Shown here one piece after another: positions 3,107 through 24,069 of a stretch of DNA of 64,000 bases. The notes below the pieces were generated by a model, which was not told where the DNA came from, did not search any database, and worked only from the letters and a program-made list of their open reading frames with translations. The DNA comes from Acidimicrobiia bacterium. Its GTDB lineage: Bacteria > Actinomycetota > Acidimicrobiia > IMCC26256 > JAENVU01. The stretch covers positions 16,805 through 80,804 of the forward strand of contig JANLRZ010000206.1 of assembly GCA_031362155.1 (NCBI GenBank). Direction: 5' to 3'. The first letter of the stretch is position 1. Each line of letters starts with the position of its first letter. The position numbers and the translations under genes were made by a program.

Positions 3107-3844
3107 ATGTCCGCAGAAACCGATCTCGTGCTCCGCGCCGACCGCGGGGGCGTGTGCACCCTCACCCTGAACCGACCGGACAAGCTCAACGCGCTGACCC
3201 CCGGATCGTTCGTCGCCCTCCGCGCGCATCTCGACGCGATCGCGGCCGACGGGTCGGTGCACTGCGTCGTGCTCGCGGGCGCGGGACGATCGTTCTGTGC
3301 CGGCCACGACCTCGCGGCCATCGCCAGCGGCGAGCGGGCCCCGAGCCGCCACTTCGAACCCGAGACCGTCGATGCACTCGAGGCGCTCCCTCAGCCGACG
3401 ATCGCGCGGCTCCACGGGCATTGCTTCACCGGCGGACTCGAACTCGCACTCGCGTGTGATCTGCTCGTGGCCGCGACCTCCACGAAGCTCGGCGACACTC
3501 ACGGCCAATGGGGTCTGGTTCCGATCTGGGGCATGTCGATCCGGCTTCCCGAACGGGTCGGGCCTTCGATGGCCAAACAACTGATGTTCACGAGCCGACG
3601 CATCGACGGCACGACCGCAGCCGAGATCGGGCTCGTGGACGTCGCGGTTGCCCACGACGAACTCGATGCCACCGTCCAACATCTCACCGCCGAGATATTG
3701 GCAAACTCGCCGGGCACCAATCGCCGGGTCAAGCGTCTGATCGCGGACCGCGGTGACCGCACGCGCACTGAGGCACTCGTGCACGAGCGGTCGTTGCCTT
3801 ACGGCGTCCCGGAGGACATGGCCGAGCGGATGGGCCGTGGCTGA
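3107..3844 (+). CDS. Enoyl-CoA hydratase/isomerase (crotonase family)
   Basis: ATG 3107 is in frame within ORF 2882..3844. LTLNRPDKLNALT and the oxyanion-hole region LAGAGRSFCAGHDL are present. Confidence 0.9.
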   Translation: MSAETDLVLRADRGGVCTLTLNRPDKLNALTPGSFVALRAHLDAIAADGSVHCVVLAGAGRSFCAGHDLAAIASGERAPSRHFEPETVDALEALPQPTIARLHGHCFTGGLELALACDLLVAATSTKLGDTHGQWGLVPIWGMSIRLPERVGPSMAKQLMFTSRRIDGTTAAEIGLVDVAVAHDELDATVQHLTAEILANSPGTNRRVKRLIADRGDRTRTEALVHERSLPYGVPEDMAERMGRG

Positions 3845-5061: not shown

Positions 5062-6426
5062 ATGCAGGTACCCGAGACGCACTACGCCCGTGCCGGTGAT
5101 CTTCGGATCGCGTATCAGCAGTGGGGCGAAGGCCCGCCGCTGGTGTTCATCCCTGCCCTGATCTCCAACATCGAGATCGCTTGGGAACACGAGCTGTACC
5201 GTCGGAGCTTCGAACACTTCGGTCGGCATATGACGTGCGTCCAGTTCGACAAGCGCGGCATCGGGCTCTCGGATCGCTTCGAGGGCGTCCCCACGATGCA
5301 ACAACGCAACGAGGACATTTTCGCCGTGATGGACGCGGTCGGATGGGACCGTGCCCATTTCATGGGCGTCTCGGAAGGCGCCGCCATGGCCCAGCAATTC
5401 ACGGCCGACTTCCCCGACAAGGTCGAGAGTCTGATGCTGCTGAACACGTTCGTGTCTCCGCAGTACCGAGACCGCTACCCCGAGTTCGTCCATGAGGGTG
5501 ATCCCCCGATGCTCGGCGTCAACCAGATCGTCGAACGCTTCATGCATATCGCCGCGCTCTGGTCCGAAGACCCGCGCCCGATGGTCGAATGGGAGATGCC
5601 CAGCGCGATCGAGAACGAGTCGTTCATCCGCTGGTGCGGGCGATTGCAACGGATGTCGTGCTCACCCAAGGACTTCATCAAACAACTCGAAAGTGTGGTC
5701 GCGCTCGATGCGGGTGACTCGCCGGAGCGGATCACCACCCGGACGCTGATCATGCACGTCGCCGGCGATCGCGTCCTGCCGGTTGCGGGCGGTCGGCTCC
5801 TCGCCGAGCTGATCCCGGACGCCGAGTACGTCGAGGTCCCCGGCGAGGACCACTTCGCCTGGATCATGCCGAACTGGCGCGAGCTCAACGACGTCTTGAT
5901 CGAGTTCGCCACCGGGACGAAAGTCTCGCGAGCCACGACCCGCACGTTCGCGACCGTGGTGTTCACCGACATCGTCGGATCCACCCGCCAGTCAGCCGAG
6001 CGCGGCGATGCCGAGTGGCGAGCGGTCCTCGACAGCCACGATCGGATCGCCCGTGGCCTCATCGACGACGCCGGCGGTCGTGTGGTCAAGAGCACCGGCG
6101 ACGGTTTGTTGGTCACCTTCGACACGCCGTCCCAGGGCGTCGAGTGTGCGATCACTCTGCGCGATGCCCTCGCGGGGATCGGGATCGACATCCGGTCCGG
6201 CGTCCATGCGGGAGAGATCGAAGTCCATGACGACGGCGACATCTCCGGCATCGCGGTCAACCTCGCGGCGCGCGTGGAGCAGGCCGCGGGCGACGGTGAA
6301 ATCTGGGCATCGTCGACGGTGCGAGACATGATGCTCGGCGGCAGTACAACATTTGCCGAAACCGGCGAGCACGAACTCAAAGGTATCGACGGAACCTGGC
6401 GCCTCTTCTCGGTCGCGTCGGTCTGA
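5062..6426 (+). CDS. alpha/beta-hydrolase :: class III adenylate/guanylate cyclase fusion protein
   Basis: N-terminal domain has the nucleophile elbow GVSEG (Ser104) plus candidate Asp (AGDRV) and His (GEDHF). From aa ~293 (nt ~5938) there is a class III cyclase domain: FATVVFTDIVGST, VKSTGDGLLVTF, IRSGVHAGEIE, GIAVNLAARV. Confidence 0.9.
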   Translation: MQVPETHYARAGDLRIAYQQWGEGPPLVFIPALISNIEIAWEHELYRRSFEHFGRHMTCVQFDKRGIGLSDRFEGVPTMQQRNEDIFAVMDAVGWDRAHFMGVSEGAAMAQQFTADFPDKVESLMLLNTFVSPQYRDRYPEFVHEGDPPMLGVNQIVERFMHIAALWSEDPRPMVEWEMPSAIENESFIRWCGRLQRMSCSPKDFIKQLESVVALDAGDSPERITTRTLIMHVAGDRVLPVAGGRLLAELIPDAEYVEVPGEDHFAWIMPNWRELNDVLIEFATGTKVSRATTRTFATVVFTDIVGSTRQSAERGDAEWRAVLDSHDRIARGLIDDAGGRVVKSTGDGLLVTFDTPSQGVECAITLRDALAGIGIDIRSGVHAGEIEVHDDGDISGIAVNLAARVEQAAGDGEIWASSTVRDMMLGGSTTFAETGEHELKGIDGTWRLFSVASV

Positions 6427-6443: not shown

Positions 6444-7079
6444 ATGACCAACGACCGTCCCGAACGCTTGATCTCCGACATGCGTGGCGTCCGTTACGGC
6501 GAGGTGCTCGCCGTCTCGGCGAAGGGATCCACCTTCGAGGCCGAGGTCTACGGCACGCAGATGTTGAACGACTGCCCCCAGGAACTCTGGGAAACACTCG
6601 ACCCCGTCGCGATCGCGCAGGATCTCGGCGCGTTGATCGTGAAGCTCAACGGCCCGCGCCACTGGATGCTCGACGGCCTCGGCCAGAAGACCGCGCCGGT
6701 CGAACCGGTGTTCCACGACTTCAATGGCCTCACGATGCGCCGGATCGCCGTGGTTGATCTCGGCGACAACCCTGCCGCGGTCCCGTACACCGAGCGGTAC
6801 GTCAACCGAGGGGCAATTTTCTTCTTCGATGCCGGGAAGCCCATTTTCGAACTCGTCAACCCCGAGGGCGTCGCCTACGTGATGCAGGCGTACTGCATCG
6901 GCGTCGACCCGACACTGCACGCCGACGCGCTCCCCTCACTCGGTGAGCGCTTGGCACTTCCCGAAGGCTGGACCTACCGCAGCCGCACCTTGGACGACGA
7001 GCTCGTCGTCGACACGAGCGCGACCATTGCAACGGTCCTCCAGGACGAACTGGAGAACACCTACACCCTGCCGAACTGA
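6444..7079 (+). CDS. Hypothetical protein (no domain recognised)
   Basis: 211-aa ORF starting 17 nt after the cyclase stop on the same strand. Composition looks coding and no competing ORF has motifs. Confidence 0.6.
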   Translation: MTNDRPERLISDMRGVRYGEVLAVSAKGSTFEAEVYGTQMLNDCPQELWETLDPVAIAQDLGALIVKLNGPRHWMLDGLGQKTAPVEPVFHDFNGLTMRRIAVVDLGDNPAAVPYTERYVNRGAIFFFDAGKPIFELVNPEGVAYVMQAYCIGVDPTLHADALPSLGERLALPEGWTYRSRTLDDELVVDTSATIATVLQDELENTYTLPN

Positions 7080-7103
7080 GCCACCGACCGAGACCATCTC
7101 GGC

Positions 7104-8384
7104 TCAGCGCCGGTTGGAGAAGTACTTCTTGTAGTTCTCGGCCGAGGCCGCCAGCGCCGGATCGGCATCGAGCTTGGGCTGCATCTTCGCCCGGGCTGCC
7201 TCCCGCTTGGCCGGGATGTACTCCGTCGGCCAGTACCCCTCGTGCGGGCGGTAGCTCTTGAGCACGTTGCGCGCCACCGTGACTTTGTGCACCTCGTCGA
7301 CGCCGTCGGCCAGGCCCATGGTGGGCGCCGCGGCGTACATCGCCTGGATCGGGGTGAGGTCGGTGGTGCCGAGCGAACCCAGGATGTGCAGCGCGTTGAG
7401 GCTCACGTCCTGGAGCACCTTGGCCATGGTGTACTTCACCGCGGCGATGTCGGTCCGGCACTCTTGCGTGCTGGTGTTGTCGATCTTCCAGGCGGTCTCG
7501 AGGACGAAGAGGCGCAGCATCCGGATCTGCGCGTACGAGTCGGCGATCTTCTCCTGCACCATCTGGTGTTCGCCGATGATCTTGCCGTGCGACTCACGAC
7601 TGAGCGACCGTTCGCACATCATGTCGAAGGCGAGCTTGCATTGGGCGATCGTCCGCATCGCGTGGTGGATGCGCCCGCCGCCGAGGCGCCGTTGGGCGAG
7701 CACCTTGGCGCCATCCTCGGGTCCCAGAAGGTGATCGAGGGGGATGCGCACCTCGTTGTAGATGATGTGGTTGTGGTTGCGCGGCTCGGGTTGGATCTCC
7801 ACACCGGGCGTCTGACGCGGCACCACGAACATTCCGTTGGTACACATGACGAAGAGGATGTCGGCGACGCGACCGGCGCTCGTGAACCACTTCTCACCGT
7901 TGATGACCCACTCGTCGCCGTCACGAGTCGCGTACGTCTTGAACAGGTTGGGGTCCGAGCCACCTTGGGGCTCGGTCATCGAATACGCCGAGAACATCTC
8001 TTGGTTCAGCAGCGGGACGAGCCACCGTTCCTTCTGTTCGTCTGTGCCGTACGCGGCGAGCATCTCCATGTTGCCGGTGTCGGGCGCGGCCGCACCGAAC
8101 ATCTGCGGCGCCGAGCCGTAGCGACCGATGACCTCGTTGAGTAGACCCAACTTGAGTTGACCGAAACCGGGCCCACCCAGTTCCTCGTCGAGGAAGATCG
8201 CCCACAGGCCCTGATCCTTGACCTGCTGTTGCAGGCCGCGTACGTAGGCCTTGACCACCGGATCCGGCGAACGCACCGCGTACGGGAACACGTAGTCGAG
8301 CGGTTCGACCTCTTCACGGCAGAACTCCTCGACCCAATCGAGCTTCTTCTGAAATTCCGGATCGGTCGAAAAGTCCCAAGCCAC
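7104..8384 (-). CDS. Acyl-CoA dehydrogenase (FadE-like)
   Basis: 426 aa. MTEPQGGSDP, DGDEWVINGEKWFTS, and an ACAD C-terminal helical domain. Confidence 0.9.
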   Translation of the reverse strand: MAWDFSTDPEFQKKLDWVEEFCREEVEPLDYVFPYAVRSPDPVVKAYVRGLQQQVKDQGLWAIFLDEELGGPGFGQLKLGLLNEVIGRYGSAPQMFGAAAPDTGNMEMLAAYGTDEQKERWLVPLLNQEMFSAYSMTEPQGGSDPNLFKTYATRDGDEWVINGEKWFTSAGRVADILFVMCTNGMFVVPRQTPGVEIQPEPRNHNHIIYNEVRIPLDHLLGPEDGAKVLAQRRLGGGRIHHAMRTIAQCKLAFDMMCERSLSRESHGKIIGEHQMVQEKIADSYAQIRMLRLFVLETAWKIDNTSTQECRTDIAAVKYTMAKVLQDVSLNALHILGSLGTTDLTPIQAMYAAAPTMGLADGVDEVHKVTVARNVLKSYRPHEGYWPTEYIPAKREAARAKMQPKLDADPALAASAENYKKYFSNRR

Positions 8385-16237: not shown

Positions 16238-17662
16238 TCAGGCGCCGTAGCCCATGATCGCCTTGGTCTCAAGGTATTCCTCGAAGCCGAGCGCACCCCA
16301 CTCGCGACCGTTGCCCGACTGGCGGTAGCCACCGAACGGCGCGTTGAAGTCGGGCCCGGCACCGTTGACGTGCACATTGCCGCTACGGATCCGGCGCGCC
16401 ATCGCCTTGGCCCGGTCGGGTGAACCCGAGATGTAGCCCGACAGCCCGTACACGGTGTCGTTGGCGATGCGCACCGCGTCATCGTCGTCCTCGTATCCGA
16501 TCATCACGAGCACCGGACCGAAGATCTCCTGCTGGGCGATCGTCATGTCGTTGGTGACGTGCGAGAACACCGTCGGCTGCACGTAGTACCCCGTGTCGAG
16601 CCCGGCGGGCTTCCCGGCCCCGCCGACTTCAACCTTCGCGCCTTCGCCGATCCCCTTCTCGATGAGCTGTTGGATCCGCCCGTACTGGGTCTCGGACACG
16701 ACGGGCCCGATGGTGATGCCGTCGGCACGCGGGTCGCCGACCACGACGTTCTTCGCGGCCTCCGCCGCGATCGCGGCGGCTTCATCCATCCGCGCCGCGG
16801 GAACGAGCATGCGAGTAGGTGCGTTGCACGACTGACCCGAGTTGTTGCACATCCCGGCGACATCGCGTGCGATTACTTCGGCGAAGTCGGCGTCGTCGAG
16901 GATGATGTTGGCCGACTTGCCGCCGAGTTCCTGCGCCACGCGCTTCACCGACGGCGCGGCGGCCCGAGCGACCTCGACGCCGGCGCGAGTCGAACCCGTG
17001 AACGACACCATGTCGACATCGGGGTGGGACGCAAGCGGGGCGCCGACGTTGATGCCGTCGCCGTTCACCAGGTTGAACACCCCGGCCGGGACACCAGCAG
17101 TGTCGAGGATCTCCGCGAACAGGATCGCGTTCAGCGGCGCCACCTCGGACGGCTTGAGCACCATCGTGCAGCCGGCCGCGATCGCCGGACCGACCTTGCA
17201 GGCGATCTGGTTCAGCGGCCAGTTCCAGGGTGTGATCATCCCGCAGACGCCGATCGGCTCCCGCGCGATGAGGGTCGTGCCCAACATGGATTCGAACTCG
17301 AAATCGGCCAACACCGCACGGGCGGTCGCCAGGTGGCCAAGGCCGGCAGCCGACTGGGCGATCTGGGCCAGCCACAGCGGTGCGCCGACTTCTTGGCTCA
17401 GAATGTCGGAGAGCTCTTCCATGCGGCCGGCGTACACGCCGATGATGCTGTCGAGCAGCGCAAGGCGCTCGTCTTTGCTGGTGAGGGAGAACGTCTCGAA
17501 CGCGGCCTTCGCCGCGGCCACTGCCGCGTCGACGTCGTCCGGGCCACCCATCGCGATCGATTCGATCGGCTGTTCCGTCGCCGGGTTGATCACCGCGAGC
17601 GTCTCGCGGGTGAGCGGCGCGACCCATTGGCCGTTGATGTAGAACTGCTGGGCGTGTTCCAT
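16238..17662 (-). CDS. NAD(P)-dependent aldehyde dehydrogenase
   Basis: FTGSTRAGVEV, ELGGKSANII, and the catalytic-Cys region NSGQSCNAPTR. 474 aa. Confidence 0.95.
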   Translation of the reverse strand: MEHAQQFYINGQWVAPLTRETLAVINPATEQPIESIAMGGPDDVDAAVAAAKAAFETFSLTSKDERLALLDSIIGVYAGRMEELSDILSQEVGAPLWLAQIAQSAAGLGHLATARAVLADFEFESMLGTTLIAREPIGVCGMITPWNWPLNQIACKVGPAIAAGCTMVLKPSEVAPLNAILFAEILDTAGVPAGVFNLVNGDGINVGAPLASHPDVDMVSFTGSTRAGVEVARAAAPSVKRVAQELGGKSANIILDDADFAEVIARDVAGMCNNSGQSCNAPTRMLVPAARMDEAAAIAAEAAKNVVVGDPRADGITIGPVVSETQYGRIQQLIEKGIGEGAKVEVGGAGKPAGLDTGYYVQPTVFSHVTNDMTIAQQEIFGPVLVMIGYEDDDDAVRIANDTVYGLSGYISGSPDRAKAMARRIRSGNVHVNGAGPDFNAPFGGYRQSGNGREWGALGFEEYLETKAIMGYGA

Positions 17663-17771
17663 GGGGGAGTCTCCTCGTTGGCCCGACGGAGCCGGGAATC
17701 GATCAAACGGCCGACCCGGGCACGTTAGAGGCTACGAGCGAAACCTGCCGCACGCCGTAGCCTGCGCCGCC

Positions 17772-19580
17772 GTGATCCTGATCGACGCCAGCGGCCTGCG
17801 GGCGACCCGGCCGAACCGACCGCTGTTCTCGGACCTCTCGCTGACCCTGAGCGACGGCGATCGGATCGGCGTCGTCGGGCTCAACGGCTGCGGCAAGAGC
17901 ACCCTGCTCAGCATGCTCAGTGGCGAGCGCGAACCCGAGGCCGGCGTCGTGCGGTTCGGACGCGGTGCGCGTGTCGGGGCGTTGGGCCAGACCCCGGTCC
18001 TTCCACCGGGTCCCGTGCGCTCGGTCGTGTGCGACGGGCTCGACGGTCAGGAATGGCAGGGCGAAGCGATGCTCGACCGGCTCGGCATGGCCGGGATGCT
18101 CGATGCGCCGACCGACCAACTCTCCGGCGGTCAGCGCAAGCGTGTCGCACTCGCCGCGTTGCTCGCCCGCGAGTGGGATGCCCTCATTCTCGATGAACCG
18201 ACCAACCATCTCGACCTCGACGCGATCGCGTTCCTCGAGACGTGGTTGGCCGACTTCACCGGTGGCCTGCTCCTCGTCACCCACGATCGCCATGTCCTCG
18301 ATCGGGTCACCACGAAGGTGCTCGAGATCGATCGGGGCACGGGCTACATGCACGTGCCCCTCAATCGGACTGCCGGTTCCGGCTACGCCGCCTATCTCGC
18401 GGCCCGCACCGAACGCGAAGAGCACGCCGCGGCCGCGGAACAGACGCGCAAGAACCTCGCGCGCCGTGAACTCGCATGGCTCCAGCGCGGCGCGCCCGCT
18501 CGTTCCACGAAACCGAAGGCACGCGTCGACACGGCCAAGGCACTTATCGCACGCGGTCCCCAGGCGGCCGCCCGCGACGGCGACCTCGGCCTGACCTTGG
18601 GCAGCTCACGCCTCGGCTCGCGCGGCATAGAACTCCACGACGTCGACTTCTCCTGGCCCGACGATCCGCGTCTCGTTCTCGACCGAATCAACCACATGTT
18701 CGAACCCGGAGATCGCGTCGGAATCGTCGGAGCGAACGGGGTCGGAAAGAGCACCCTGCTCGATCTCATCGCGGGCCGCCGGCAGCCCACGCGCGGCACG
18801 GTCGACATCGGCACCACCGTGAAGGTCGGCTACTACGACCAACTCGGTCGCGACCTGGATCTCGGTCAACGCGTGCGGGATGCCGTGGCCGGTGAGAAGG
18901 GCGCACCGTCGGTGGCCGACGGCAAGCTGATGCGCCAGTTCTGGTTCGACGATGACACCCAAATGGCCCCGATCGGCACCCTCTCCGGCGGCGAACGGCG
19001 GCGATTGCAGCTGCTCCTGACGTTGGTGGAACAGCCGAACGTGCTCCTGCTCGACGAACCCACCAACGACCTCGACCTCGATACCCTGCGCGCGCTCGAG
19101 GAGTTCCTCGACGACTGGCCGGGCATCGTCGTGGTCGTCAGCCACGACCGGGTCTTCCTCGATCGCACCGTCGAAGACGTGTTGGCCATCGACGTACACG
19201 CCCATGCCGCGGTGGTACGGGGTGGCGTCACGGGATGGCTCTCGCACCGCACCTCGTCGAGCCCACCCCCGAGTACCGCCCGGACGAGCAGCACCCGCAA
19301 CCCGCCGACTGCCGCGCCGACCGTCCCACCGGCTCGCGCGCCATCCAAGAAGAGCCCGAGCACCCTGCGCCGTCAGCTCGCAGTCGCGGAACGCGACCTC
19401 GCCGCGGCGATCGCTGCGCACGATGAACTCCAAACGCGACTCCACATCGCGACCACCGACCACGAGGCGTTGGCCCGAATCAGCTCCGAGCTCGCGGCGT
19501 CTCAGACCCAGGTCGACGACGCCGAGGAGCGCTGGCTCACCCTGGCCGACCAAGCCGAGTCCATCGGCATGGACATCTGA
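17772..19580 (+). CDS. ABC-F family ATPase (Uup/EttA-like, soluble)
   Basis: Two cassettes (Walker A GLNGCGKST and GANGVGKST; signatures LSGGQRKR and LSGGERRR), no TM segments, and a C-terminal coiled-coil tail. Start moved to GTG 17772, immediately before ILIDASGL. ORF-track start 17661 overlaps the ALDH start. Confidence 0.9.
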   Translation: MILIDASGLRATRPNRPLFSDLSLTLSDGDRIGVVGLNGCGKSTLLSMLSGEREPEAGVVRFGRGARVGALGQTPVLPPGPVRSVVCDGLDGQEWQGEAMLDRLGMAGMLDAPTDQLSGGQRKRVALAALLAREWDALILDEPTNHLDLDAIAFLETWLADFTGGLLLVTHDRHVLDRVTTKVLEIDRGTGYMHVPLNRTAGSGYAAYLAARTEREEHAAAAEQTRKNLARRELAWLQRGAPARSTKPKARVDTAKALIARGPQAAARDGDLGLTLGSSRLGSRGIELHDVDFSWPDDPRLVLDRINHMFEPGDRVGIVGANGVGKSTLLDLIAGRRQPTRGTVDIGTTVKVGYYDQLGRDLDLGQRVRDAVAGEKGAPSVADGKLMRQFWFDDDTQMAPIGTLSGGERRRLQLLLTLVEQPNVLLLDEPTNDLDLDTLRALEEFLDDWPGIVVVVSHDRVFLDRTVEDVLAIDVHAHAAVVRGGVTGWLSHRTSSSPPPSTARTSSTRNPPTAAPTVPPARAPSKKSPSTLRRQLAVAERDLAAAIAAHDELQTRLHIATTDHEALARISSELAASQTQVDDAEERWLTLADQAESIGMDI

Positions 19581-19668
19581 CCCACTTCGCCAGAACCCCC
19601 TCGTCCCGGTATGGTTCCCGTCGACCGGCCTGTTCGCAGAGTGCGGACCCGAGTGCGGGGGGCAGGTA

Positions 19669-20688
19669 TTGATTCTCGCAGCGCTGCGTGATCTGCAGTG
19701 GCGGTGGAAGCGGTTCACGATCGCGATCGTCGCCACCGCGCTCGTCTTCAGCATGAGCCTGGTGATGTCCGGACTCTCGGATTCCTTCCCGAGTGAGATC
19801 AACCGATTGGTCGACACCCTCGGAGGTCAGAGTTACCTGGCGCCGACGGGAGAGGTCGGGCCGTTCACCAGCACCTCGATCGTGCCGACGGACCAGGCGC
19901 CTGACGCGGCACCGATGCTCTACTGGAGCGCAGCGCTGCGCGTGGGCGATGCCGACCGCCAAGCCGGGCTCTTCGGCCTCCCCATCGGCTGGCCCCTCAC
20001 TATCCATGACGGACGCACCACCCGGCGCGCCGGTGAAGTGGTGGTCGACGACTCCCTCGGTCTGTCGGTGGGAGACGCACTCCGCCTCGGTCCGAACCGC
20101 TACCGAGTGGTCGGCACGATGAGCCAGCGCACGATGTTCGGCGGCCAGCCGTTAGTCATCATGACGATCGGGGACGCACAGAATCAGCTGGCCGGCGGTG
20201 CGCGTATTACTCGCGCGTTCATCGACGACAAGCCCGCCGACGCACCGGCGCCCAAGGGGCTCGCCCGGTATTCGCTCGCCGAGGCACGCGAAGACCTCCT
20301 CCGACCGATGAAGAGCGCCAGCCAATCGATCACCTTCGTCAACGTGCTCCTCTGGCTCGTGGCGATCTGCATCATCGGCTCGGTCGTCTTCCTCAGCGCG
20401 CTCGAGCGCAGCCGCGACTTCGCGGTGTTCAAGGCCACCGGTGTGAAGTCCTGGCAGATGGGGCTCGGCTTGGCCCTCCAAGCGGTCGTACTCGCGGTCA
20501 TCGCATCGCTGCTGGCGATCGGCCTTGCGTACCTGCTCGCGCCGGCCTTCCCGATGCCCGTCTCGATCCCGCCGTCTGCCGCGATCAGCCTTCCGTTCAT
20601 CGCGATCGGCATCGGCTTCCTGGCGAGCCTGGCCGGATTACGCAAAACGATGGCCGCCGATCCGGTCGAAGCCTTCGGAGGACGCTGA
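19669..20688 (+). CDS. FtsX/MacB-type ABC transporter permease
   Basis: TTG 19669 follows a G-rich RBS. Layout is TM1 (FTIAIVATALVFSMSLV), a ~210-aa extracytoplasmic domain, then a 3-TM FtsX domain. The upstream part of ORF 19204 is R/P-rich and overlaps the ABC-F gene. Confidence 0.8.
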   Translation: MILAALRDLQWRWKRFTIAIVATALVFSMSLVMSGLSDSFPSEINRLVDTLGGQSYLAPTGEVGPFTSTSIVPTDQAPDAAPMLYWSAALRVGDADRQAGLFGLPIGWPLTIHDGRTTRRAGEVVVDDSLGLSVGDALRLGPNRYRVVGTMSQRTMFGGQPLVIMTIGDAQNQLAGGARITRAFIDDKPADAPAPKGLARYSLAEAREDLLRPMKSASQSITFVNVLLWLVAICIIGSVVFLSALERSRDFAVFKATGVKSWQMGLGLALQAVVLAVIASLLAIGLAYLLAPAFPMPVSIPPSAAISLPFIAIGIGFLASLAGLRKTMAADPVEAFGGR

Positions 20689-20689
20689 G

Positions 20690-21673
20690 ATGCCGAAACT
20701 GACCATCGACCAACTGACCGTGCGGTACGGACAGGGCGAGAACGCCGTCACCCCACTCGACCGCTTCACCGCCGAAGTCCAGGAAGGCACGCTCGCGGTA
20801 CTGCTCGGTCCATCCGGCTGTGGCAAGACCACGCTCCTCTCGTGCGTCGCCGGGATCCAGCATCCGACCGACGGCACGATCACCTTCGGCGACACCGAGG
20901 TCACCGACCTCGACGCCGCCGGGCTCAACTCGTACCGCAGCGGCACCGTCGGCATCGTGTTCCAAGGCTTCAACCTCATCCCGTCGCTCAACGCGCTCGA
21001 GAACGTCCAGGTGCCCATGCGTGCGACCGCGGTATCCCGGGCCGAGTCTCGGAGTCGCGCGACGGCGTTGCTCGAGGATGTCGGCCTGGCCGAACGCGCC
21101 GCCCACCACCCCGATGGCCTCTCGGGCGGGCAGCAGCAGCGAGTCGCGATCGCGCGGGCGCTCGCACTCGATCCGCCGCTGATCGTCGCCGACGAGCCCA
21201 CCGCAAGCCTCGACCACGTGCAGGTCGAAGTCGTGCTCCGCATCCTGCGGAGCCTGACCAACCGGGGTCGCACCGTTGTCGTCTCGACGCACGACCCTCG
21301 GTTGATTCCGCTCGCCGACCAGCTGATCGAGATGCAGCCCCACGCGGCGCCCACCCCCGGCGGTCCGGCCATCGACGTCGCCTGTGCCGCGGGCGAGTTC
21401 CTCTTCGAGCAGGAGAGCGTCGGCGATCGGATCTACGAAATTCTCGATGGTGCGATCGAGATCACCCAGGAGCGCCCCGACGGATCCCGCCACGTCCTCA
21501 CGACCCTCGGGCCCGGCGACCAGTTCGGGGAGATGGGTCCGTTGTTCGACCTCCCGCGATCGGCCTCGGCGCGCGCGGTCTCGGCCACGACACTGCGGGC
21601 CTACACAGTCGACGGGTTCCGATCGCAGTTCGGCGCCGAACGACTCAAAGCTCTTGTCTCCCGCAACTCCTGA
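20690..21673 (+). CDS. ABC transporter ATP-binding protein fused to a C-terminal cyclic-nucleotide-binding domain
   Basis: ATG 20690 lies 1 nt after the permease TGA (20686-20688). Walker A GPSGCGKTT, signature LSGGQQQR, Walker B LIVADEPT. aa ~228-320 form a cNMP beta-roll with phosphate-binding cassette LGPGDQFGEMGPLFDLPRSASARA. Confidence 0.9.
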   Translation: MPKLTIDQLTVRYGQGENAVTPLDRFTAEVQEGTLAVLLGPSGCGKTTLLSCVAGIQHPTDGTITFGDTEVTDLDAAGLNSYRSGTVGIVFQGFNLIPSLNALENVQVPMRATAVSRAESRSRATALLEDVGLAERAAHHPDGLSGGQQQRVAIARALALDPPLIVADEPTASLDHVQVEVVLRILRSLTNRGRTVVVSTHDPRLIPLADQLIEMQPHAAPTPGGPAIDVACAAGEFLFEQESVGDRIYEILDGAIEITQERPDGSRHVLTTLGPGDQFGEMGPLFDLPRSASARAVSATTLRAYTVDGFRSQFGAERLKALVSRNS

Positions 21674-21691
21674 ACTCGGCGACCGGTCGGG

Positions 21692-23791
21692 CTACCGCAG
21701 GTCTTCGACGAACGAATCCCCCACACCATTGAGGTCGGCGACCGCGAGGTTGGTCGCGGAACTGCCGAACAGCGCTACCAGACCGTCATAGGAGACATCG
21801 CTCACACCGGCACCACCCCACCAGCCGGTCTCCTCGTTGACCGGCCAGGTGCCGTCGTCAGCCACGCCGATCGCTCGCGTCTCGTTCGTGAGTAGGTCGC
21901 GACGGATCGACGCCGAGTCGGTGATGTACGGCGCGGCGGGCAGCGGTTCACCACACTGGCAGCTGTAGAACGCGTAGCGGCCGTTCCCACTGATCGCGAG
22001 CGGGTAGCTCCCCTGGTTGGGCGGCACCTCGGTGTCAAGGAGCCGAGTCGTACCGGCAATCCGGTCGCGCAGGTAGACGTGCGGCGACGGCGCGGCGCCG
22101 TTCACGCCGCCGAGATCGGCGGAGCTCGTGGCGCCCGGGTACAGATTCCAGCCCGCCGATTGCAATTCGACGAGACGACCATCGGGGCTAATCACCGGTG
22201 TGCCGTAGCTGCACCCCGGAACCGATCCGTTGGTCTGCTGTGGCTGCTCGGCGTCGGTCACACTCACACGCTCGAAGCTATTGCCGTCCACGTCATAGAC
22301 GAACGTGTCGGCACAACCGTTGGAATCCCCGGCAACGCGGGTGCTCGATCCATCGGTGAACGCAACGAATCTCCCATTCCCACTGATGCGCGGGGTTCCC
22401 CAGTTGTACTGCCATGGTGCGACGAATTCCGGCGAGCGGCGAGCGAACTCGGTGGTCGTACCCGCACCTCGATCGACCAGCGTGAGCACCGTGATCGCCG
22501 CAGACTGCGCAGGGTCATACTCATAGCGGGTGCCCACCACCCGCATGCCGTCGTCGCTGATCGATCCTGCGGTGCCGGCGCCCAGATCAATCGTCGTCCC
22601 CGCGACGCGGTCCCGTACCAAGAGGTGGTCTTGAGAGAATGCACCGCTCGTGAAGAGTACGTAGCGCCCGTCGCTGCTCAATCCCTGTGGGGTCGCACCA
22701 CCGGCCCAGAGATTGGTGCTGAAGAATTGACCACCGGCGGCTGGGATGCTCACCAGCTCCGTGGTCTGGGCAAGGCGGTCGCGAACAAAGACGTCGGAGA
22801 GCTCGTTCGTGTCACCGATAACGAGGTTCGCGGACTTTGACGAAAACAGTGTGTAGCGGCCGTCGCCACTGATCTCGCTCGGGGCAGAGCCGCCGATCGT
22901 TCCCAACGAGCAGCTCGCGATGCTTTCTGCCTCTTGCTCGTCGTCGCCAACACCGACGCGCTCGATGTGGCCCTTCCACACTGGCGGTGCCGGAGGCGGG
23001 CTGCTCCCGTCGTCGTCGAGAATCTCGGAGGAACCGATCGAGTCGCCGACGATCGCGGGTCCGGACATCACCTGAATGCTCTGGATGATGTTCTCGCGAA
23101 ACGCCTCAGGCGTGGTGTCCGCGAGCACTTGAATCTTCACGCTCTTCGTTCGTTGACCGGCCGCGAATGCGACATTGGCGGCAGTGAGCACCGCATAATC
23201 CTCGCCAAGGGTCGCCGACGCGCAATTGGCATTGATGTGCACGACGATCTTCGAGGGCGCTGGTCGTGAGAGCGTGAGCGGGATCAGCGCGTAGTGATTG
23301 CCACTGTCAGCTTCGCTGACCGTGATCTCACCGACGGTCGCTTCGATCGCGGTCGCTACACCGTCGGAGTCGTCATCGACGATGGTGATCCCGCCCGGCG
23401 AATCCCCGAGTGTGGCGTTGAACGGGCTGCTCAAGACGACTCGGATGTGCTCGTCCGATTCCGGATCCGTGTCGCCGTAGACCGCGATGTTGAGTTGCTT
23501 CGTGGCCACGCCCGGCAAGAAGGACAACTTGCCCGAACGCGCAACGAAGTCGGCGCCCGTCGCAGTATCGGCGACGACCGCGAACTTGACCGTTGTCGTC
23601 GCCGTGGGGTTCGGCGCCGAGAGGTCGATCGGCACGTTGACGACCGCGGTGCCACTGTCGCCCTCGACCACCGTCGCGTTCCCTGCGCTGACCGTGGACA
23701 GCTCGACCGCCGCCGCCGGACCCGAGATGATTCCGAGCAGTCCCGCACTGGCAAGACCGAGACCGGAAAGGACCGAGATCGTTCGCCGCAT
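21692..23791 (-). CDS. Secreted protein: two Calx-beta-like domains plus TolB/PD40-type beta-propeller repeats
   Basis: RBS GGGGGGGAAACG precedes ATG 23791. Signal peptide LGLASAGLLGIISGPAAA|VE. Calx-beta pattern (VVEGDSGTAVVNVPIDL..., FLPGVATKQLNIAVYGDTDPESDE). Reiterated S.DGRY..F.S.A.NLV..D.N...DVFV.D blades. Confidence 0.8.
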   Translation of the reverse strand: MRRTISVLSGLGLASAGLLGIISGPAAAVELSTVSAGNATVVEGDSGTAVVNVPIDLSAPNPTATTTVKFAVVADTATGADFVARSGKLSFLPGVATKQLNIAVYGDTDPESDEHIRVVLSSPFNATLGDSPGGITIVDDDSDGVATAIEATVGEITVSEADSGNHYALIPLTLSRPAPSKIVVHINANCASATLGEDYAVLTAANVAFAAGQRTKSVKIQVLADTTPEAFRENIIQSIQVMSGPAIVGDSIGSSEILDDDGSSPPPAPPVWKGHIERVGVGDDEQEAESIASCSLGTIGGSAPSEISGDGRYTLFSSKSANLVIGDTNELSDVFVRDRLAQTTELVSIPAAGGQFFSTNLWAGGATPQGLSSDGRYVLFTSGAFSQDHLLVRDRVAGTTIDLGAGTAGSISDDGMRVVGTRYEYDPAQSAAITVLTLVDRGAGTTTEFARRSPEFVAPWQYNWGTPRISGNGRFVAFTDGSSTRVAGDSNGCADTFVYDVDGNSFERVSVTDAEQPQQTNGSVPGCSYGTPVISPDGRLVELQSAGWNLYPGATSSADLGGVNGAAPSPHVYLRDRIAGTTRLLDTEVPPNQGSYPLAISGNGRYAFYSCQCGEPLPAAPYITDSASIRRDLLTNETRAIGVADDGTWPVNEETGWWGGAGVSDVSYDGLVALFGSSATNLAVADLNGVGDSFVEDLR

Positions 23792-24069
23792 CGTTTCCCC
23801 CCCAAGGACCCCAGGCTGGCGCCGGCCCGGGCGGCACCCTACAAGTCCGAGGTTGCCCCGGCAATGAACCTCATTCCAGGTGGGGCGGGAAGTCTGGCCA
23901 CGCGAGCATGGATCCGTGGCAGCCGCGCGGCGTCAAGTCCGCGGCACGTCGACCGTCATCTGGAGTTGGGGATCAATGTGGGGGCGGAGAAGCGCTGCGC
24001 GTCGATCGAGAAGCGCCACGTTGGCTGAGGTTTCGCGCCGCAGCGAACCATCAGCTGCTCTGGCCAACC

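Follow-up and report, generated by a model that had tools for sequence, protein, structure and literature searches.

A 64,000-nucleotide (nt) stretch of contig JANLRZ010000206.1 from an Acidimicrobiia bacterium (here called the window) carries two translationally coupled genes, both on the plus strand, that encode an actinobacterial type VII (MacB-superfamily) ATP-binding cassette (ABC) machine. The first gene (19669 to 20688) encodes an FtsX-type permease, and the second (20690 to 21673) encodes an ATPase in which a nucleotide-binding domain (NBD) is followed by a cyclic-nucleotide-binding (CNB) domain. The pair almost certainly belongs to the family represented in Mycobacterium tuberculosis by Rv0072/Rv0073 and Rv2563/Rv2564. 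In the explanation that we favor, the CNB domain would be the sensor through which cyclic AMP (cAMP) acts on the ATPase; the probability that we attach to this explanation as a whole is about 0.55, a figure that reflects its mechanistic part.

The assignment to the family was based on sequence, domain content, and gene order. The window ATPase was 52% identical to Rv0073 over all 327 amino acids (aa) (BLASTP, E = 2e-111). Rv0073 itself (P0342, 330 aa), which was found by searching with the Mycobacterium asiaticum ATPase, occurs on >1000 M. tuberculosis-complex contigs under source names that include “glutamine ABC transporter ATP-binding protein” and “Uncharacterized ABC transporter ATP-binding protein Rv0073” (UniRef). 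It carries the same pair of Pfam domains, ABC_tran and cNMP_binding, with an intact phosphate-binding cassette (PBC), FGEIGVLFHLPRSATVRA, and in two M. tuberculosis-complex loci (L169 and L170) its gene lies 2 nt behind that of a 349-aa permease with MacB_PCD and FtsX domains. The features of an Rv0072/Rv0073-type pair, namely, an ATPase of about 320 to 340 aa with PF00005 and PF00027 and a MacB_PCD-plus-FtsX permease directly upstream, were all found in the window, and gene order, tight coupling, and both Pfam pairs are as in Rv0072/Rv0073. The differences lie in the Acidimicrobiia-like host and in the flanking genes, which in the case of Rv0072/Rv0073 encode a serine dehydratase, a serine hydroxymethyltransferase (SHMT), an amidohydrolase, and Rv0078B. 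Furthermore, Rv2563/Rv2564 have downstream of them a gene of the Rv2565 type, encoding a patatin with a cyclic nucleoside monophosphate (cNMP)-binding domain, whereas no such gene lies downstream of the pair in the window.

The initial annotation of this DNA had implied that the architecture is rare. It is instead exactly that of Rv0072/Rv0073, and of Rv2563/Rv2564 too, and is not new but typical of a large, long-annotated actinobacterial family that includes M. tuberculosis members. The two M. tuberculosis pairs have been described as having MacB-like transmembrane domains with an external domain (PMC7761784), and Rv2564 and Rv2565 have been listed with PF00027 (PMC4886424). Rv0072 and Rv0073 are wholly deleted in Beijing/W strains (RD105; PMC6347829). 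In M. asiaticum (locus L002, 3705 to 7842), two pairs stand in tandem, at 3705 to 4754/4758 to 5750 and at 5795 to 6844/about 6850 to 7842; the family has therefore been locally duplicated in some mycobacteria, which echoes the two paralog pairs of M. tuberculosis.

The fusion of NBD and CNB domain and the pairing with a permease gene are conserved throughout the family. A search of a 5.8-billion-protein set was made, and the 120 best matches were taken; these homologs were 310 to 342 aa long and carried PF00005 and PF00027, the one exception being a 243-aa fragment. In addition, metagenomes were scanned with the C-terminal third of the ATPase (alignment A3), which yielded 80 loci; the CNB domain lay in the reading frame of the NBD in 79 of them, the 80th being cut by a contig end. 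A frameshift or assembly artifact, which the initial annotation had named as a way in which the fusion might prove spurious, was rejected on these grounds. An FtsX-type permease gene was found directly upstream, on the same strand and separated by -1 to 51 nt, in all 66 loci for which the available upstream DNA exceeded about 180 nt, and the pair of permease and ATPase-CNB genes was also present in all 10 further contexts that were read through called genes. The permease is thus the sole obligate partner of the ATPase-CNB protein. In one locus (L165, 3739 to 4946), the permease (profile positions 4 to 234) is joined without a break to an NBD that begins at profile position 150; an internal deletion has removed the TM3-TM4 region and the NBD N terminus, and the remnant is either a pseudogene or a misassembly.

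Two other searches bear on the extent of the family. A search with aa 200 to 327 of the ATPase returned about 38 proteins starting at the NBD end among the best 150 representatives, was otherwise dominated by multi-CNB eukaryote-like proteins and generic CNB domains, and gave no clean family count. A scan of a genome collection with the full-length alignment A1 was keyed on generic Walker A and Walker B peptides, so that its fusion count is not a taxonomic census; the matches listed comprised 78 ordinary ABC ATPases and two fusions, one from an Acidimicrobiales metagenome-assembled genome (MAG; L001) and the other from M. asiaticum (L002). The nearest named homologs of the window ATPase were Acidimicrobiia MAG proteins, with 83 to 87% identity.

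The ATPase open reading frame (ORF) starts at ATG 20690, one base past the permease stop codon (TGA, 20686 to 20688), and extends to 21673, in agreement with the coordinates and the tight coupling originally reported for the two genes. The NBD (aa 1 to 215; 20690 to 21334, plus strand) was delimited by Pfam, NCBIfam, PDB, and Foldseek matches and contains a Walker A motif, GPSGCGKTT (aa 40 to 48), a Q-loop (Q92), the signature LSGGQQQR (aa 144 to 151), a Walker B motif, LIVADEPT (D168 and E169), and an H-switch (H201). The residues of all five elements were invariant in an alignment of 117 sequences, with which a 20-sequence version agreed. Pfam placed ABC_tran at aa 24 to 172 (E = 4.2e-32). 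The best NCBIfam models were DevA, FtsE, LolD, and MacB, all with scores under their cutoffs, and the best PDB sequence matches, which span only aa 1 to 226, were MJ0796, YtrE, YbbA, MacB, and LolD; no PDB chain matched both the NBD and the CNB domain in the sequence search. The AlphaFold2 (AF2) model of the ATPase (predicted local distance difference test [pLDDT], 88.4) was matched by Foldseek to MacB, LolD, YbbA, and MJ0796 at a root mean square deviation (rmsd) of about 2 Å over 214 to 217 columns. By its motifs, the ATPase is a catalytically intact cassette of the MacB/LolD clade; the MacB/LolD-like cassette that had been proposed for aa 1 to 215 was thus confirmed by NCBIfam and Foldseek, with every motif quoted for it present, and the Pfam check suggested for the 327-aa protein returned PF00005 and PF00027 as expected.

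An 11-residue Pro/Ala-rich linker (aa 216 to 226; 21335 to 21367, plus strand) joins the NBD to the CNB domain (aa 227 to 327; 21368 to 21673, plus strand), which was recognized by Pfam, phmmer, and AF2. Linker residues 217 to 219 form the sole low-confidence stretch of the ATPase model (pLDDT <50), and it is the linker, too, that varies in alignments A1 and A2. The cNMP_binding match (aa 233 to 312, E = 9.5e-17) scored 61.2 bits against a cutoff of 27.5 and spanned profile positions 5 to 84 of 89, and phmmer against the PDB returned the CNB domains of PKA-R, PKG, and M. tuberculosis CRP, with E values of 1e-17 to 1e-11. In the AF2 model, strands occupy aa 227 to 305, starting straight after the linker, and are followed by two short helices only (aa 307 to 314 and 316 to 323). 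The Pfam score above the gathering threshold, the modeled strands, and the PDB matches together describe an eight-stranded, minimal beta-roll. When the entire window was scanned with an HMM of the family CNB domain, no second copy was detected.

The PBC, FGEMGPLFDLPRSASARA (aa 279 to 296; 21524 to 21577, plus strand), includes Glu281 and Arg290. In phmmer alignments, it was paired with FGELALMYGTPRAASVQA of PKA-R and with the PBCs of PKG, which places Glu281 at the position of the ribose 2'-OH contact and Arg290 at that of the phosphate contact, and its segment FGEMGPLFDLPRSA fits the consensus FGE...PR[ST]A. Among the 117 aligned sequences, G280, E281, F286, L288, and R290 were invariant, and F279, M282, P284, P289, S291, A292, and A296 were at least 90% conserved. 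The beta-roll with a canonical PBC that had been read at the C terminus of the ATPase is therefore borne out, and ligand binding by the CNB domain looks likely.

The partner is a 339-aa permease of the type VII (MacB/FtsX) superfamily, as judged from Pfam, hydropathy, AF2, and Foldseek. Its gene opens at TTG 19669, which corrects an assumed ATG start; this codon is the first in-frame start past the end of the upstream ABC-F gene (19580) and is preceded by a purine-rich stretch, and a public-assembly protein (P0448) has the same length, 339 aa, and the same sequence. Pfam found MacB_PCD at aa 20 to 177, just above the threshold (27.2 bits versus a cutoff of 27), and FtsX at aa 223 to 330 (E = 6.6e-15). 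Four hydrophobic segments were seen in the hydropathy plot, of which the transmembrane (TM) segments at aa 14 to 38 and about 222 to 246 flank the extracytoplasmic domain (ECD). In the AF2 model (pLDDT, 92.5; predicted template modeling score [pTM], 0.82), an elbow/TM1 and stalk helix (aa 2 to 51) is followed by the ECD (aa 52 to 202), TM2 (aa 203 to 246), a coupling helix (aa 248 to 256), TM3 (aa 261 to 293), TM4 (aa 302 to 328), and a short C-terminal helix. These are the four TM helices, the large ECD between TM1 and TM2, and the C-terminal FtsX domain of a type VII permease. The layout given in the initial annotation, TM1, an ECD, and a three-TM FtsX domain, was therefore right, whereas its figure of about 210 aa for the ECD was too large; the AF2 model and hydropathy give a beta-rich domain of about 150 to 180 aa. 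The best Foldseek match of the model was HrtB of Corynebacterium diphtheriae (7W7A/7W78; TM-score, 0.73), followed by MacB, LolE, Spr0695, and YbbP, with LolC and BceB also among the top matches, and HrtB was the sole phmmer match in the PDB (E = 5.7e-7, full length). As modeled, this FtsX-type subunit is compact, with four helices and an ECD of about 150 aa, and is closest to HrtB and not to FtsX.

On the mechanism that we favor, the assembly would probably resemble HrtBA in its (permease)2(ATPase)2 makeup. The ligand of its CNB domains would be cAMP, the cyclic nucleotide that prevails in Actinobacteria, and these domains, placed under the NBD dimer, would work in the manner of the regulatory domains at the C termini of MetN, MalK, and ModC. 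A cAMP-loaded CNB domain would alter the readiness of the two NBDs to close on ATP, and cytoplasmic cAMP would thereby set the rate of the extracytoplasmic work of the permease, which, by analogy with HrtB, MacB, and LolCDE, may be the expulsion of a lipophilic or membrane-outer-leaflet substrate. Allosteric control of the NBDs is proposed because the permease is the sole obligate partner, the ATPase appears intact, and the sensor is located at the NBD C terminus. The odds that cNMPs directly control ATPase activity, a step argued by analogy, may be put at about even.

The precedent for such control comes from importers. MetN, with its C2/ACT-like domain, MalK, and ModC all resemble the window ATPase in having a small ligand-binding domain at the NBD C terminus, and these domains dimerize under the NBDs and control NBD closure (trans-inhibition). 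Foldseek matches of the ATPase model to MetN, MalK, and GlcV extended over >350 columns at an rmsd of 10 to 13 Å. The window ATPase differs in having a CNB beta-roll in place of an ACT- or OB-like domain, in the presumed signal, a second messenger rather than the transported substrate, and in belonging to a type VII system rather than to a type I importer. The systems with the structurally closest NBDs, MacB, LolCDE, and YbbAP (rmsd of about 2 Å with 37 to 40% identity), also have permeases that resemble that of the window in their four-helix FtsX topology and in a MacB_PCD core outside the membrane; they differ in their larger periplasmic domains, in their outer-membrane or adaptor partners, and in having no cytoplasmic sensor on the NBD. 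No adaptor gene was conserved beside the window-type pairs.

Genes for cNMP signaling recur beside relatives of the pair and are suggestive of a link to such signaling. A lipase of about 580 to 650 aa that combines cNMP_binding and patatin domains (NTE-like) is encoded directly downstream of the ATPase-CNB gene in four loci and was confirmed by Pfam in each (L107, 3934 to 5664; L148, 7691 to 9439; L159, 7071 to 9017; and L165, 4984 to 6711); this layout is the Rv2563-Rv2564-Rv2565 arrangement, and it hints at a lipid-related, cNMP-controlled module. An 88-aa fragment at a contig end (L111, 1188 to 1451) was assigned to the same lipase by similarity to the L107 and L165 N termini, without Pfam. 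Directly downstream of the ATPase-CNB gene are also a Crp regulator gene in L141 and a gene for a standalone CNB protein in L089. A cyclase domain was found within the fetched flanks of 6 of the 80 loci, a raw count without a genomic background. One locus, L082 (4404 to 10209), is a compact cNMP island flanked by transposase genes. It encodes, in this order, a Crp-type regulator, a class III cyclase (172 aa), the permease and ATPase-CNB protein of the pair, a standalone CNB protein (151 aa), and a metallophosphoesterase (250 aa) that may be a phosphodiesterase. A different neighborhood, also one of envelope-lipid transport, was seen in two Mycobacterium/Mycolicibacterium-type loci (L086, 2675 to 6993, and L087), where the pair lies directly after genes for an LppX_LprAFG lipoprotein and a major facilitator superfamily (MFS) transporter (LprG/P55-like) and between riboflavin genes and ribD-rpe-fmu-fmt.

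Several observations weigh against cAMP gating. The N-terminal helical (N3A) segment and the long lid helix, which relay the signal in PKA, Epac, and CRP, are absent from the CNB domain in the AF2 model, and because both are lacking, the relay from CNB domain to NBD, as far as the model goes, cannot be the PKA/Epac one; the pTM of the ATPase model, 0.67, leaves the orientation of the NBD and the CNB domain undefined. Most relatives had no cNMP-signaling neighbor. In the window, no cNMP gene is adjacent to the pair. The class III cyclase fusion that the initial annotation pointed out at 5062 to 6426 is real (454 aa, with an N-terminal Abhydrolase_1 domain and a C-terminal Guanylate_cyc domain, E = 1.3e-9), and the organism therefore makes cyclic nucleotides; it lies 14 kb from the pair, and a specific link between the two is unsupported. 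Experimental binding or activity data for a member of the family were not found in the literature, and the mycobacterial homologs were termed “experimentally not characterized” in a review (PMC7034087). Finally, HetC of Nostoc PCC 7120, a peptidase-containing ABC exporter, depends for its function in vivo on a fused CNB-type domain, and this domain was reported to bind ppGpp in vitro (PMC10986499), so that a canonical CNB fold is no guarantee of a cNMP ligand. HetC resembles the window ATPase as an ABC transporter fused to a CNB-type domain, whereas its domain is N-terminal and belongs to a full-length exporter of type IV/PCAT; in the window, the NBD is a subunit of its own within a type VII system and bears the CNB domain at its C terminus, with a PBC that is, by sequence, the canonical cNMP one.

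The same observations nourish a first alternative, in which the CNB fold would sense neither cAMP nor cGMP and would serve another nucleotide or metabolite ligand or act as a constitutive dimerization or docking module for the NBD pair. The ppGpp binding of HetC, the minimal domain without N3A and lid helices, and the scarcity of cyclase and phosphodiesterase neighbors, which most loci lack, are all consistent with it, and NtcA, for its part, binds 2-oxoglutarate. This alternative is nevertheless unlikely, since the PBC fits the cNMP consensus residue for residue, and neither its Glu nor its Arg varies among 117 sequences; with such invariance, a purely structural CNB domain would be unexpected. 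The Crp, cyclase, and cNMP-patatin genes that recur beside the pairs of relatives also argue against it.

Some type VII ABC systems, FtsEX among them, are pure mechanotransmitters, and a second alternative is that the pair likewise activates an extracellular partner instead of moving a substrate. The candidate would be a Calx-beta protein, which the initial annotation had proposed as a partner or cargo; it is encoded convergently on the minus strand (21692 to 23791) with a signal peptide and a Pfam-confirmed Calx-beta domain, and the end of its gene is 18 nt from the ATPase stop codon. FtsE is indeed among the best NCBIfam models for the ATPase, but its score is far under the equivalog cutoff (TIGR02673, 177.3 bits versus 264.85), as is that of FtsX_actino for the permease (NF038346, 19.9 bits versus 250), and no FtsX chain was among the 50 best Foldseek matches of the permease model, in which HrtB, MacB, LolCE, and YbbP were present. 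An FtsEX paralog was rejected on these grounds. The Calx-beta gene fared no better. Locus L081, from a relative (94% DNA identity), keeps collinearity with the window from 12681 until precisely 21673 and regains it at 24069, with an MDMPI_N gene; between these points, the 2.4-kb Calx-beta segment of the window (21674 to 24068) is replaced by an unrelated 0.8-kb ODP (PF19583) gene. The segment is strain-variable, no Calx-beta homolog was found in the 80 metagenomic loci or the 10 inspected contexts, and the proposed partnership was therefore rejected. Activation of an extracellular partner is, on this evidence, quite improbable.

Orthology with the heme exporter HrtBA is very unlikely, although HrtB was both the best fold match and the sole PDB sequence match of the permease. 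HrtBA of C. diphtheriae (PDB 7W78 to 7W7D) is likewise a compact actinobacterial type VII system whose permease is about 340 aa long, crosses the membrane with four helices, and has an ECD of about 150 aa, and the NBD of HrtA belongs to the same clade as that of the window ATPase. However, the permease and HrtB are only 19% identical, and Glu219 at the top of TM2, a heme ligand of HrtB (PMC9271180), is paired with Ala217 of the window permease, Ala being the family consensus; the pairing comes from one phmmer pairwise alignment at that identity and is moderately secure. HrtA, moreover, ends after the NBD (221 to 231 aa) and has no CNB domain, whereas the window ATPase has 327 aa with one, and no heme-responsive two-component system was beside the pair in any inspected locus; an HrtBA ortholog was rejected for the lack of the Glu, the low identity, and the CNB-less HrtA. 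The weakest alternative, the ATPase of a GlnQ-type importer of glutamine or polar amino acids, which is the historical mycobacterial annotation and survives among the names of the Rv0073-cluster proteins, can be set aside as highly improbable and was rejected, because the NCBIfam GlnQ model (NF007027), at 162.5 bits, scored far under its cutoff of 379, the partner permease is of the FtsX/MacB kind rather than that of a type I importer, a binding-protein gene was not conserved near the pair in the inspected loci, and the glutamine annotation had already been doubted in a review (PMC7761784).

Other features of the window are as follows. Its G+C content is about 67% throughout. An ABC-F (EttA/Uup-like) ATPase gene (17661 to 19580) ends 88 nt upstream of the permease gene; it is syntenic in the 94%-identical relative and was not beside the pair in other contexts. 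Scans of 19000 to 22500 for promoters, terminators, and Rfam families gave nothing beyond chance. A terminator-like hairpin with a weak T tract is present at the NBD-CNB junction (21378 to 21396), one site compared with 0.7 +/- 0.9 expected by chance.

Mycobacteria and other Actinobacteria have many cyclases and few characterized cAMP effectors. Ten M. tuberculosis proteins are predicted to bind cNMPs, of which mainly the transcription factors and the acetyltransferase have been studied. The catalog of ten cNMP-binding proteins by McCue et al. (2000), a paper that is cited in PMC3938503, reportedly includes Rv0073 and Rv2564. Literature searches that combined Rv0073 or Rv0998 with cyclic-nucleotide terms returned nothing, and no characterized cNMP-gated type VII ABC system was found in the literature, in line with the earlier statement that none is known in the FtsX/MacB class. 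To our knowledge, no type VII ABC system is under cytoplasmic second-messenger control. The window extends the family to Acidimicrobiia with every functional residue kept and adds little to the question of cAMP gating in type VII ABC machines, which is a genuine one but not specific to the window locus. A tentative and less probable extension of the proposed mechanism is that the family is a direct cAMP-to-envelope effector, with CNB gating of a type VII mechanotransmitter, and that, in lineages in which a cNMP-patatin gene adjoins the pair (the Rv2563-Rv2565 layout), it may form a cAMP-controlled module for membrane-lipid remodeling or extrusion. A cNMP-binding ABC ATPase would link cAMP posttranslationally and straight to an envelope machine. 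If the tentative extension is true, the family would include the first second-messenger-gated MacB-class machine, and two of the long-orphaned cNMP-binding proteins of M. tuberculosis would have a function.

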